DNA of 51,487 nucleotides from Cyanobacteria bacterium P01_A01_bin.123. GTDB taxonomy: Bacteria; Cyanobacteriota; Cyanobacteriia; Phormidesmidales; Phormidesmidaceae. The notes under the pieces were generated by a model. That model worked only from the letters and a program-made list of their open reading frames with translations, ran no database searches and was not told where the DNA came from. This document shows positions 21,952 through 51,487 of this stretch, piece by piece. The stretch lies in the NCBI GenBank assembly GCA_039815185.1, contig JBCBZT010000054.1, forward strand, positions 1 through 51,487. Direction: 5' to 3'. The position numbers and the translations under genes were made by a program. Position 1 is the stretch's first letter. The number at the start of each line of letters is the position of its first letter.

Positions 21952-22194
21952 ATGAACCAATCCGATCCCCCTGTATGGGAACCCATTGCCTCTGGTGCTG
22001 TGCCGGCAGGTTTGATGGCTCCTGTGCAGATCCAGAGCCATCGGGATGAGTTGCCTCAGCTATCTGCGATCGCCAACAAGATACTCGACGACCCATTGGA
22101 GGTAAAGCGACTTGCTGAGCGCGTACATCAGCTGATGCAACAAGATTTACAGTTGCAACGAGAGCGGAGTGGATCCTATGGAGGACGACGCTGA
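21952..22194 (+). CDS. Small eCIS-associated hypothetical protein
   Basis: About 80 aa ending LAERVHQLMQQDLQLQRERSG; TGATG overlap with the tube gene; motif shared with the C-terminus of the giant protein. Confidence 0.7.
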   Translation: MNQSDPPVWEPIASGAVPAGLMAPVQIQSHRDELPQLSAIANKILDDPLEVKRLAERVHQLMQQDLQLQRERSGSYGGRR

Positions 22195-22937
22195 TGTTTT
22201 TCCAGTCTCCGCTGAGTTCAATGTTAATGGCGTCCCGCCTAAGTTCAGCCCTTGCCAGTCAAGCACAACAATCGATAGTTAGGGCAAATCTTATCAGACA
22301 GCAAGCGATAGTTAGGGCAACTCTTAGCAGCCAGCAGCAGTCCGGGAGCTCGAGTTTAAGCCCTGCTAGTCGCCAGCAGCAGACCACTTCTCAATCTACG
22401 ACCCACAGACAGCATCGCGCCAACTATATTTTGAGCCATCGCTTCTACATTGAAATGGGTGGTGTGATTCGAGCCGCTTTCAACGAATGTTCAGGCTTTG
22501 GTCTAGATGTCAAAAAAGAACAATACCTGGAGGGTGGCGTCAACGACCAGCAGCGGGTTTTGCTGGGCCATGCCGAATTTCAAGACACCACGTTCAAACG
22601 CGGCATGACCAATGACTCATCGTTTTGGCTCTGGATGAAAGAGATTGTGTCGGGGCAGACATCAGGGACAACCATTGTCCGCACTCGCCGGAATATCAAT
22701 ATTTTGATGATGAATCAAGCGGGTGCCACGATGCAGATTTGTACCCTAGTGGGTGCCACTCCGATTGGCTGGAAAGCACCAGCATTTCAAGCCGATAGCA
22801 ACTCCGTTGCGATCGAAGAAATCACCATGGCCTACGAAGGCATCAATATGCAGTTCCAGTCTGATGACCCCTTAGGCAGCGGCGGCGCTTCCACAGACCT
22901 AGCGCGCGATACGCTGGGCTTCTTCCCTGACAGTTAA
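22194..22937 (+). CDS. eCIS tail tube protein (T4 gp19-like; Afp5/tube-initiator type) with S/Q-rich N-terminal extension
   Basis: RFYIE, FNECSG, YLEGGVN, FKRGMT, FWLW, RRNINI, VAIEEITMAYEG. Confidence 0.92.
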   Translation: MFFQSPLSSMLMASRLSSALASQAQQSIVRANLIRQQAIVRATLSSQQQSGSSSLSPASRQQQTTSQSTTHRQHRANYILSHRFYIEMGGVIRAAFNECSGFGLDVKKEQYLEGGVNDQQRVLLGHAEFQDTTFKRGMTNDSSFWLWMKEIVSGQTSGTTIVRTRRNINILMMNQAGATMQICTLVGATPIGWKAPAFQADSNSVAIEEITMAYEGINMQFQSDDPLGSGGASTDLARDTLGFFPDS

Positions 22938-22985
22938 CCCGACCTGCCATCTCCGAGATTAATTAACTGACCCTGCAATACGCCA

Positions 22986-48075: not shown

Positions 48076-51000
48076 TTAGATAGACGGGAAAGGTGGGAAA
48101 ACACTCGCTTTATTGAAGTTTGCAAAACCACCTAATACCTTAAGAACAAAAGCTTTTCCTTTAGATTTTTTCTTCTTAGGACTCTTCATAATTCCTATTC
48201 TTTGCCTTAAATGATATGCTCTATCCCTGCTCGATAGGTTAGAAAACTTATACTTTTCGAGCATGTAATCCATAGCCTCAGGAAACTCCTCAGACAACGA
48301 CTGGAGCTTCCAGATATCACTTGTTTCATCAAAAATCTCTATCTGTTTGAGCAATTTATCCGCTCTTAAGATTAATTCAGGCGTATCTTTCCCAAATTCC
48401 TTAATGACTTCCCAAGCCAGATCTTGCGTAGCATCGTCTCGTTCACTTTGCTCATAAGCCTTGACGATATCTCCCCAGCTTTCTGTCAGCCAAGCTCTCA
48501 ATAATAAGTGTTTTATCCTGCGATAACCCGGAGCGCCAGAACGATATCTTATTGCATTTAGGATAGATCCCGTTGAGTACTGACGATCTTTATCAGACTG
48601 ATACTCCATGATGCCAGTTTCTGGATCAGCAAGTTGCCAGTATTCAGAAGCTTTGATGGCAGATCCTGAAACGGTTATCTGATCATCAACACCAGCCTTG
48701 TCTATTCTTCCTCGGATGAAACCTCCAACGCTTGGATTCGTTTCGTAATAAAACTTTTTCATTTCATCCCGAGTTTTTTCAAGATTCTTATAAAAAGGAC
48801 CTCTGTAAATACGCCCCTGATTTGTATGCCCCTGATTTTGATATTCCTCTTTTGCAGTGAGACTGAGGTCTCTATAAATATCCTCCTGCTTTGCATGATA
48901 CTTCTCCCCCTTCAATCTATGCTTATTCCTCTTCTTTCGAAATTCGTATATCGCATCGCGATTACTTAGATCAGAAGGAGTATCACTATAATACGATTCA
49001 TCATCATAAGGGTTATCACTCCAATGATATTTGTAAAGACCTTGATCATCAATATATCTATCTGCATAACAGGCATTCAAGAATATTCTGTTACGCATGT
49101 TTTGCCTCTGATCTGGATCCAAATCTTTGGCTGGCGTCATGTAATGAATAATCTCGTCAATCAAACCTTCAAATGCTTTAACGCCATCTTCATATCCTAA
49201 ATCAATAGCGTGTTCGTAATTAATAGGATTAGCAGGGCCATCACCCTCCGCAGCATGGTTTAATTGGATTTGGTTTTCGGAACCATGACCAGCAAACATC
49301 ACCTGGTCGATTTTGCAATTGAGTCCAAACGTCTTGGCGATAGAACTGATGACGTTTGTGTATTCCTGTTGAGATTTTCCCATCATTACTAGGGTATGAG
49401 AATCAGATTCCCCTAGTACAGAATTCAAAGTTTCATGATCAAAGAATGCACCTCCAGGATCCGCATCTTTCGTTGCGTGGAAAATAAGGTTAAGCGGTTT
49501 TCTTTCCGAGGGTTTTTTCTGACTTTGACTTTGAGCAATCAGACCTGTGATATTTTGTTGTAATAAATCAACGACACTCTGATAAAAATCAGGGTGGCTA
49601 GCAACTGCATAATCTTTGATCAATTCTTCAGCACTAGGCTCATCCTGCTTTTCTTTTTCTTGGTTTAGGTTAGGAAATAATGAATCAGCAGCTTTTTTGT
49701 CAGAATTTTTGCTAAATACCTCTTCATCTTGCTGATTGTCCAGAATGTAAGCATCATCCTCGGATATCTCAAACCTATATGTATGAAAATCGTCATCACT
49801 TATTTCTTGAGCGGCCACTTTCTCTAAAAGTTGTTTCGCTTTTTCGGTAAAGTGGCCATTTTTAATGTCTGCTTTTACCTGATCCCAAGATTCAAAAAGT
49901 TCAAACTTTTCTTCCCCGCCATTTTTTTGACGCTTCAGTATCGCGTTGGCCAACTCGACAGCTCGATCTGTCTTCTCCTCGTCACGCTCGATATCGCTGA
50001 TGCCACTAGATTCACGATTTGCCTGGCGTATATTGTTCTGTATATCAGCCTCTGAAGGGCCTGCCATGATGTTGTCACGAGATTCATCGTCCGTCATGTC
50101 AAACGGTTCGGAATTGCTTTTCAGTGCTTGATTAAGAAGGTCCCAACGGTCTAGGTTCTCTTTTGTTAGGGGGAGATAGGGGTCTGAATTTGGCCGGGAA
50201 AGCGATGGCTTAAATAACCAATCATCATCACTTTCACTGCTTGAGGAGGTGACACTTGAATGTGCACTGCTCAGAGAGGAGCCAATACTAGTGGCACTAC
50301 TAAGTGCTGATATGGCGCTGCTCTCTACAGATGCTTCACTCATTGCATTAGATTGCTCGTCTACATCATCTGCCCTATTTTTTCCATGGCGATTCATCAG
50401 ATCAACTAAATGTAAAACTGGCCCCAAAAGCTCCATATCTTGATTGTTTGCAGCCCCCCGTCTTTGTTTGTCTTTTCTCCTGGGGCGCTTGTAGGCGTTC
50501 GCGCCGTTTACTTCATTATCGTTGAGCGCATCTTTTTCCTCATCATCGTTGAGCGTATCCTCTATTTCACTTGCTTTTTCTTCCATTTCACTTGCTTTCC
50601 TTCTCCTCCTTTCTATGTTTTTTTTCTTTGCTGGTTTTTTTTTCTTTGCTGGTTTTTCTTCCTGTGCTTCTTTCAACAGCTTATTGAGGGAGATATTCTT
50701 TTTACCAGTGACATACTTCTTCACTAAAGCCTCAATAATATCCTCATGAATACCTGCTTTTAATAAATGACTTCTTACTGTCTCCTCACGCAAATAGGAA
50801 CTTGCCTCATTAGCTGAATATAGATAGTAATCATTGGGGTAAACTGTCCGCTGAATCGTACCATTCGTTTGCTGCGGTAAAGATGGGCCGCCCACCCTGC
50901 CGCTCTGGAGGTCTGTTTGAGCTGTGAAACTCGATGACTGCACGACAGATGGGGATGGCTGCGGGGCAGACTCACCATTCTCACCCTGAGCACTAGTCCC

Positions 51001-51487
51001 CATGACACTCACGGGTTGATTGCGCACCACGCGATCGCCATTGTCATCGGCATTTTGCTCCAACGCCGGGTTGGCATTAATCGGGGTGCCATTCACATCC
51101 GGCTTCAGCGCCATCTGGCTCTGCTGCACTACATGGGTCGCCTCATGGGCCAATAGCTGCGGGTCATTCGCCCCGCTCGATTGCACTACGATGTTGTTCT
51201 TCTGGGTATATGCCTTTGCCTGAATGCTCTGGGTTGCCACATCATCCACATGCACCCGCGCCTGTTTCACCTCCGGATAACCTGACTGCACAAAGGCATC
51301 GCTCACCTGCTTGGGCAACGGGCTGCCACTGCCCTTGGGTTTCAGATCTACAGAGTTCTCCCCGGCACTGCCTGCCGTCTGGGGCATTGAGTTCATCCCA
51401 GCGGGCACATCCCGTTGAATGGGCAGTTGCATGCTGAGGGGGCGCAGCTGGAGTAAGGATTGCCCCATCGGCATGTGTAACACCGCC
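48076..51487 (-). CDS. DUF4157 (eCIS core domain) protein with long C-terminal cargo; putative eCIS effector, N-terminus probably beyond the window
   Basis: GSPLP...ARVH...AKAYTQ...LLAHEATHVVQQ...LEQNAD; PIQR and TIQR motifs; cargo with FAGHGS and FLNAC; the frame is open to the window edge. Confidence 0.88.
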   Translation of the reverse strand, partial: AVLHMPMGQSLLQLRPLSMQLPIQRDVPAGMNSMPQTAGSAGENSVDLKPKGSGSPLPKQVSDAFVQSGYPEVKQARVHVDDVATQSIQAKAYTQKNNIVVQSSGANDPQLLAHEATHVVQQSQMALKPDVNGTPINANPALEQNADDNGDRVVRNQPVSVMGTSAQGENGESAPQPSPSVVQSSSFTAQTDLQSGRVGGPSLPQQTNGTIQRTVYPNDYYLYSANEASSYLREETVRSHLLKAGIHEDIIEALVKKYVTGKKNISLNKLLKEAQEEKPAKKKKPAKKKNIERRRRKASEMEEKASEIEDTLNDDEEKDALNDNEVNGANAYKRPRRKDKQRRGAANNQDMELLGPVLHLVDLMNRHGKNRADDVDEQSNAMSEASVESSAISALSSATSIGSSLSSAHSSVTSSSSESDDDWLFKPSLSRPNSDPYLPLTKENLDRWDLLNQALKSNSEPFDMTDDESRDNIMAGPSEADIQNNIRQANRESSGISDIERDEEKTDRAVELANAILKRQKNGGEEKFELFESWDQVKADIKNGHFTEKAKQLLEKVAAQEISDDDFHTYRFEISEDDAYILDNQQDEEVFSKNSDKKAADSLFPNLNQEKEKQDEPSAEELIKDYAVASHPDFYQSVVDLLQQNITGLIAQSQSQKKPSERKPLNLIFHATKDADPGGAFFDHETLNSVLGESDSHTLVMMGKSQQEYTNVISSIAKTFGLNCKIDQVMFAGHGSENQIQLNHAAEGDGPANPINYEHAIDLGYEDGVKAFEGLIDEIIHYMTPAKDLDPDQRQNMRNRIFLNACYADRYIDDQGLYKYHWSDNPYDDESYYSDTPSDLSNRDAIYEFRKKRNKHRLKGEKYHAKQEDIYRDLSLTAKEEYQNQGHTNQGRIYRGPFYKNLEKTRDEMKKFYYETNPSVGGFIRGRIDKAGVDDQITVSGSAIKASEYWQLADPETGIMEYQSDKDRQYSTGSILNAIRYRSGAPGYRRIKHLLLRAWLTESWGDIVKAYEQSERDDATQDLAWEVIKEFGKDTPELILRADKLLKQIEIFDETSDIWKLQSLSEEFPEAMDYMLEKYKFSNLSSRDRAYHLRQRIGIMKSPKKKKSKGKAFVLKVLGGFANFNKASVFPPFPSI

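Follow-up and report, generated by a model that had tools for sequence, protein, structure and literature searches.

The tripeptide [VIL]QR links two kinds of protein of the cyanobacterium Cyanobacteria bacterium P01_A01_bin.123: cargo proteins with a DUF4157 domain, a predicted zinc peptidase, and a giant low-complexity protein of a contractile injection system (CIS). Both are encoded on the stretch analysed here, contig JBCBZT010000054.1 (the window, 51,487 nucleotides), which spans the whole of contig C47 in a genome of 8.09 Mb (label G000). In this genome, the enrichment of [VIL]QR is confined to the DUF4157 proteins and the giant, and in the cargo proteins the last copy coincides sharply with the beginning of the cargo domain. 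We tentatively suggest that [VIL]QR is the site recognised and cut by the DUF4157 peptidase. The motif is real, specific and apparently undescribed, and occurs in a known kind of system. Our literature searches found no paper that names a QR motif in CIS proteins, although alignment figures (e.g., Fig. 4 of PMC3482391) may show it, and the same searches, which covered text without figures or supplements, found none that names the giant gene.

The [VIL]QR motif is concentrated in the giant and in DUF4157 proteins

The giant contains 73 QR dipeptides, 69 of which are [VIL]QR compared to 1.6 expected from its composition, and no more than seven were obtained in any of 500 shuffled sequences, in line with the original prediction that this tripeptide punctuates the protein. 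Since the copies are encoded by 30 different codon triplets and their flanks fall into 34 clusters at 40% identity, this is a protein-level motif, and a single DNA repeat as the source of the array was ruled out. The sequence is 65% P, S, Q, A, T or E and only 1.2% F, W, Y or C. No match to the giant was found in Pfam, and its C-terminal helix has neither a Pfam family nor a PDB match; PDB searches with one sequence and two profiles gave no relevant match at E 10, for which the 30-residue helix may be too short. An Atlas search returned unnamed clusters only, from cyanobacteria and Chloroflexota. The gene is also covered by contigs from three further samples of one study, and between 24500 and 25400 it varies in repeat number in other samples, always in frame, by a net 555, 459, 309 and 321 bases.

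We then examined the motif across the genome, where 28 PF13699 (DUF4157) matches are spread and fill most of the top of the [VIL]QR enrichment list. The 28 DUF4157 reading frames hold 127 motifs compared to 13.5 expected (9.4-fold), whereas the remaining 6799 open reading frames (ORFs) hold 1845 compared to 1729.5 (1.07-fold), so that the proposed association of QR with CIS cargo was upheld. The 48 CIS structural proteins carry 12 compared to 17.7 (0.68-fold). An artefact of low complexity was also ruled out, as 160 matched low-complexity windows hold six motifs compared to 9.0 expected (0.67-fold). The DUF4157 protein of the window has, as predicted, PIQR before the domain (residues 22-25) and TIQR at the cargo boundary (residues 210-213), but two motifs are not significant on their own (63 of the 229 genome ORFs of 900-1400 residues have at least two), and the claim was therefore tested on the DUF4157 family.

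Within the DUF4157 proteins of this genome, the motif is enriched 16.5-fold in the N-terminal arm (73 compared to 4.4 expected, the highest density) and 15.5-fold in the linker that follows the domain, compared to 1.5-fold in the core and 2.4-fold in the cargo. A similar distribution was seen in distant DUF4157 proteins (arm 14-fold, linker 7.7-fold, core and cargo 3.4-fold each), in which no tripeptides outside the core are more enriched than VQR and IQR and the motif occurs in 70 of 109 arms and 59 of 113 linkers. This set consists of the 126 of 131 database relatives that show HExxHxxQ, taken from the best 150 of 3478 matches, and carries a small selection bias, since the query itself held two motifs. 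The original prediction had taken it as known that QR-type motifs are common around DUF4157; this is true in the data, but we found it in no paper.

The last linker motif coincides with a step in aromatic content, from 0.016 to 0.098 in 18 proteins of this genome (reached by none of 2000 permutations) and from 0.012 to 0.072 in 31 distant proteins (reached by four of 2000); both sets comprise single-domain proteins that carry a motif in the linker and extend for 230 residues or more past HExxH. In the window protein, whose cargo domain matches only two other ORFs of the genome and whose paralogues share the N-terminal part, the homology to the paralogue on contig C52 starts exactly at IER 499, aligned to IQR 220. 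The C52 paralogue also keeps the caspase-like HG ... C pair of this cargo. A caspase-fold cysteine peptidase at 49069-49293 is a lead only: Pfam gave no match for this region, and the Atlas clusters it pointed to, DUF4347 and Peptidase_C80, scored under 0.9.

The first 77 bases of contig C52 are identical to those at the end of the window DUF4157 gene, hence the assembly breaks in a common N-terminal cassette. Several of the contigs C9, C18, C32, C47, C52 and C110 end inside this near-identical cassette of HEATH-type paralogues, pointing to their recent expansion. One DUF4157 gene (C99:65588-67456) is broken by a single stop codon. A stand-alone DUF4157 protein of 169 residues with an intact motif (C97:35881-36390) adjoins a Cis15-like ATPase and a cap-like gene, and is a candidate for action in trans.

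DUF4157 is predicted to keep a complete zinc-peptidase site

The window protein matches PF13699 with 47 bits (cut-off 22), and H114, E115, H118, Q122 and E143 are invariant in 69 alignment rows, so that the HExxHxxQ-E signature is present. AlphaFold2 folds residues 45-158 with a predicted local distance difference test score (pLDDT) mostly above 90. The top 12 structural matches of this core all are or contain zinc peptidases, all below Z 8, including ERAP1 (Z 7.1, root-mean-square deviation 4.0, 107 aligned residues), the VgrG2b effector domain (Z 5.6) and thermolysin (Z 5.5); a Foldseek search with the model gave no match at E 0.001. HEATH indeed lies at 51133-51147, as first noted, and DUF4157 is predicted to keep the full gluzincin site (H114, E115, H118 and E143).

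In the paralogues of this genome, an E-x-[EN]-A-[DE] helix occurs either 29-31 residues after HExxH or 135-192 before it, never both. An example of the second type is L004:1399-2013 (minus strand), with KLTVG..D.YEQEAD, in contrast to the window core at 51013-51354. In this type, the third-ligand helix is predicted with a pLDDT of 87-90 and a predicted template modelling score of 0.66, pointing to a permuted fold from which the QR linker would loop out; the two helix positions thus likely reflect a circular permutation.

When the DUF4157 core was modelled together with zinc and a QR peptide from the giant, the complex scored 0.39, compared to 0.02 for the best control, with at least 90% of contacts agreeing between runs and a partner pLDDT of 50-52. 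Of 157 solved pairs, 116 pass the score mark, as do 2 of 215 mismatched ones; scores up to 0.60 include 18 solved pairs and both passing mismatches, and such passes are more often wrong unless the pair was likely beforehand. The score may also reflect memory of peptides in zincin clefts, the controls being without a QR mutant, and we take it as weak support for a QR peptide in the DUF4157 cleft. Docking of QR in cis into the core was not predicted by the models.

Giants with and without QR in other cyanobacteria

A profile of the giant's C-terminal helix matched in 109 of 401 genomes of the class (about a quarter), and 94 slot proteins, the giants being cyanobacterial, were fetched from 93 genomes. 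Of the last 40 matching genomes, 23 are absent from this set: 14 belong to a single genus and 9 gave weak or small matches. Some slot proteins are truncated at contig ends, the G038 row lacks the helix at its end, and the G076 protein is spread over two ORFs. In the fetched relatives, the family likewise occupies the gene slot between the initiators. Giants enriched in QR (p < 0.001) make up 60 of the 79 whose genomes have DUF4157 and 2 of the 15 whose genomes gave no DUF4157 match, for a nominal Fisher p of 7e-6 that is overstated, since kin are not independent. The two exceptions, G025 and G179, come from fragmented assemblies, and both genomes have the ATPase. Among the positives, DUF4157 gene number and QR density do not correlate (rho 0.17, p 0.17).

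The idea that QR is found throughout the giant family was rejected, as 21 of 78 database homologues of at least 800 residues are enriched and 21 have no motif at all; the Nostoc-named homologues have 0-2. Eight of the 19 non-enriched giants from DUF4157-bearing genomes favour another third letter (P, A, S, T, L or K), and the second giant of our genome (C15, 2109 residues) has one [VIL]QR and 35 [VIL]QP. The motif is thus nearly general among cargo proteins, and giants may have it or not.

None of the nine slot proteins from genomes without a Cis15 match is enriched in any [VIL]Q-x. Of the six from ATPase-positive genomes without a DUF4157 match, four are not enriched, two of these being only 131-136 residues long. 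These two (L179:17646-18056 and L181:508-903, in G290 and G358, with an ATPase and no DUF4157 match) consist of the helix and lack the arm. This agrees with a plug-like core to which an arm may or may not be added, and argues against the arm serving as the ruler in all systems. CIS loci without a Cis15 or DUF4157 match (L079, L089, L090, L118, L122, L126, L134, L136 (f15, f30) and L156-L157) have acidic, QR-free giants of up to 3277 residues. One such genome, G140, keeps cap, sheath, tubes, initiators, spike and gp25.

A possible cleavage site and its alternatives

We favour [VIL]QR as a cut site, at a level that remains a suggestion, because it accounts for an active site that is intact, for motifs placed where domains begin and for their regular spacing in an arm that would need to be cleared from the lumen. 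In the cargo, a cut at the last motif would free the C-terminal domain from its disordered loader; release by such a cut is proposed because this motif sits at the first residues of the cargo domain. In the giant, the C-terminal helix would likely be placed where the tube meets the spike, the arm lying inside the lumen, and cutting at intervals of about 29 residues would reduce this arm to short peptides and make room for cargo. Here DUF4157 would act in trans, from any of its 28 copies, including the stand-alone protein next to the Cis15 ATPase. Cutting just before V, I or L would explain the giants that use [VIL]QP, QA, QS, QT or QL, and it fits the P1′ preference of thermolysin-type peptidases. 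We infer the catalysis, the cut site, the lumen location, the identity of the plug and the timing.

Self-release of cargo by DUF4157 autoproteolysis was already proposed in 2012 (PMC3482391). In a recent study of AlgoCIS, DUF4157 is dispensable for loading, which requires the disordered N-terminal part and the ATPase (10.64898/2026.05.27.728243); therefore, the job of DUF4157 lies elsewhere.

Several observations weigh against cleavage. A cleavage product at QR was found neither here nor in the literature text consulted, and both QR motifs are unstructured in the monomer model (pLDDT about 50). The densest cargo motifs lie in the N-terminal arm, which is needed for loading, so that early cutting would be harmful and some control of timing would be needed. 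Only 59 of the 113 distant linkers contain the motif, and the toxicity of Cgo1 in E. coli is described as independent of the metalloprotease motifs (PMC8894135). The co-occurrence of QR-rich giants with DUF4157 rests on few events: seven negatives form one group on the VgrG tree (the VgrG trees being quick trees), and the negatives G290, G350 and G127 belong to clades in which members with DUF4157 are poor in QR as well. G025, 84% complete and without a DUF4157 match, keeps 22 motifs; 19 of the 79 giants from DUF4157-bearing genomes are not enriched; and in G403 and G175 the cargo keeps QR and the giants have none.

Next in order, and rather unlikely in our judgement, QR could be a repeated loading tag, gripped by the Cis15 AAA+ ATPase or an adaptor that threads the cargo and the giant's arm into or out of the lumen uncut. 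The peak of motif density in the N-terminal arm agrees with this, as do the AlgoCIS loading requirements just cited, the lack of enrichment in all nine slot proteins from Cis15-less genomes, the presence of the ATPase with both QR-rich giants that have no DUF4157 match, and the PVC Pnf signal, which is reported as uncleaved for loading (PMC11495950). However, a loading tag leaves the sharp placement at cargo domain starts unexplained, it does not account for the four of six slot proteins that lack enrichment despite an ATPase, and loading sequences are reported as unconserved between systems (10.64898/2026.05.27.728243). The data do not cleanly separate a role of QR in cleavage from one in loading.

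Further down, we consider it improbable that DUF4157 holds QR in its cleft but leaves it intact, serving as an adaptor by which cargo is strung onto the giant's arm and the tube initiator. The complex score of 0.39, with the same limits, is consistent with such binding, as is the abutment of the giant gene and a tube initiator gene, and in Streptomyces lividans a DUF4157 protein is reported to co-elute with the tube initiator (PMC13277306).

Equally little weight is given to a physical or historical role only, in which QR would be a bead that touches an acidic tube wall or keeps the chain soluble, and a recombination point for cargo swaps: 72 of the 102 arginines of the giant's acidic arm stand in QR, tube lumens are described as acidic (PMC8894136, PMC8894135), repeat number varies in frame between samples and many giants do without QR, but the strict requirement for V/I/L and Q across 30 codon triplets and 34 unrelated flank clusters points to sequence-specific recognition, and K rarely replaces R (there is no [VIL]QK in the giant).

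An extension of the favoured cut-site reading is that the giant might be the missing length-setter of CIS that have no tape measure, i.e., a disposable disordered ruler, anchored by a plug helix, that is shredded at QR by the DUF4157 of the cargo so that the tube is emptied, with the effectors freed through the same code; we regard this as a long shot. What sets particle length without a tape measure is described as an open question (PMC12237407). If the ruler reading were true, one three-letter code would couple particle maturation to effector release across cyanobacteria.

Relation to known systems

The DUF4157 proteins resemble the PVC-metallopeptidase cargo described previously (PMC3482391; PMC8213781; Cgo1/Cgo2, PMC8894135) in their disordered arm, HExxHxxQ-E signature, variable cargo and many dispersed copies. 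The accessible parts of these reports give no recognition or cut motif, whereas [VIL]QR is quantified here as a candidate; in addition, the third-ligand helix lies here after or far before HExxH. The giant shares with the Alg6/Cis6 spike plug (PMC8894135; PMC8894136) the slot between Cis5 and Cis7, the C-terminal helix and a flexible part that would reach into the lumen, and the two relatives with short slot proteins add to the likeness. It differs in that no sequence match to any solved chain was found and in arms of up to 3277 residues. Sequence proof that the giant is Cis6/Alg6 was sought and not obtained, there being no relevant PDB match and no Pfam family.

A short conserved motif just before a swappable domain is also known from polymorphic toxins, namely the pre-toxin processing motifs DPxG in Rhs and VENN in CdiA, and phage prohead proteases cut many sites along a disposable scaffold. 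Compared to these, QR is a different motif with a different protease class, is repeated many times and is shared with a structural gene.

DUF4157, a domain of function called unknown in the literature, marks about half of the predicted extracellular CIS effectors (PMC11297309), and a defined motif offers it a candidate substrate. As [VIL]QR predicts where cargo domains start, it could be useful for annotating thousands of unknown effectors. The results also point to an overlooked giant gene family in cyanobacteria and bear on the open field of which signal loads or frees CIS cargo.

The tip module completes a split CIS

The genome has three sheath loci (C9, C15 and C96). The C9 locus holds sheath, tubes, cap, ATPase, gp25 and baseplate, and no tube initiators or spike were found in it; the window module supplies exactly these. 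Together they comprise sheath, tubes, Cis1b, Cis7, VgrG, gp25, baseplate J, P2-I wedge, cap and AAA ATPase. In G170, which has the VgrG closest to that of the window on the tree and a giant with 68 motifs, the tip module abuts a homologue of a C9 gene, and a C25 locus (sheath, tubes, ATPase) is 72-93% identical to C9. This orthology ties C9 and the window module as one split system, so that the tip module completes a Streptomyces-type CIS on C9.

By gene content, the system resembles the Streptomyces coelicolor CIS of subtype IId (PMC12237407; PMC10066040), with Cis1b, Cis7, VgrG, gp25, baseplate J, P2-I wedge, Cis16 cap and AAA ATPase and no classical tape-measure gene found, but here it is split over contigs and has a 2588-residue QR-studded protein between the initiators. 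The available description of the CIS-Sc structure reports no plug or tape measure (PMC12237407). The Afp14-type tape measure (PF19268) was found neither in G000 nor in four of five others, and its matches in G170 lie on other contigs.

The dispersed tip-plus-effector system of the original prediction is therefore right at the scale of the genome, but the link of the module to the window's own DUF4157 gene was overstated. This gene lies 14 kb away on the other strand, with unrelated genes between, and is one of 28 matches; a special tie was rejected as incidental. In six fetched relatives, a DUF4157 gene directly follows VgrG.

Layout of the window

Table 1. Features of the window discussed in the text.
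Feature	Position	Strand	Evidence or remark
Small protein, 80 residues from ATG	21952..22194	+	matched by profile A2 of the giant's C-terminal helix, E 3.6e-11
gp19-type tube initiator (Cis1b/Cis5-like)	22194..22937	+	PF06841 E 3e-34; matches All3323/All3324, Pvc5 and Afp5 chains
Giant low-complexity protein, 2588 residues	22986..30752	+	slot between two tube initiators (plug or tape-measure position)
Array of 69 [VIL]QR, residues 126-2378	23361..30119	+	median spacing 29 residues
Conserved C-terminal helix motif of the giant, L-E-x-L-A-x-E-[VI]-Y-x-L-L-R-Q-R-L-x-x-E-x-E-R-x-G	30630..30749	+	alignments A1, A2
Cis7-like tube initiator (CIS_tube)	30832..31695	+	PF19266 E 1e-15
VgrG-like hub-spike (Cis8)	31858..33990	+	PF04717 E 2e-25, PF05954 E 3e-7
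DUF4157 cargo ORF, 1136 residues, 5′ end open at contig end	48076..51486	-	PF13699 E 3e-12, residues 56-124
AGHG ... LNAC, His and Cys of putative caspase-fold cysteine peptidase in cargo	49069..49293	-	motifs at 732 and 803
IER, residues 499-501, degenerate motif opening second cargo module	49984..49992	-	aligns to C52 IQR 220
TIQR at linker-cargo boundary, residues 210-213	50848..50859	-	
Folded DUF4157 core, residues 45-158, predicted gluzincin-like	51013..51354	-	AlphaFold2, structural matches
E143, predicted third zinc ligand	51058..51060	-	invariant in 69/69 rows; on helix 140-154; fits HExxHxxQ-E (PMC3482391)
HEATH (HExxH) zinc motif, residues 114-118	51133..51147	-	H114, E115, H118 invariant in 69/69 rows
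PIQR, last motif of N-terminal arm, residues 22-25	51412..51423	-	

The small gene at 21952-22194 ends in the same helix motif as the giant, and in many relatives a similar small gene stands 5′ of the initiator gene, in some cases as a fusion with another domain. Directly after VgrG, a short high-copy repeat (34020-34126; contig depth about 25-90 times that of its neighbours, with many loose ends) is possibly a miniature mobile element at the module edge. Further along, six genes on the minus strand (37850-44665) encode, from their Pfam matches, a phosphodiesterase, an unknown protein, a DHQ (dehydroquinate) synthase-like protein, UbiA, TatD and another unknown protein, a run that we take to resemble the ebo cluster.

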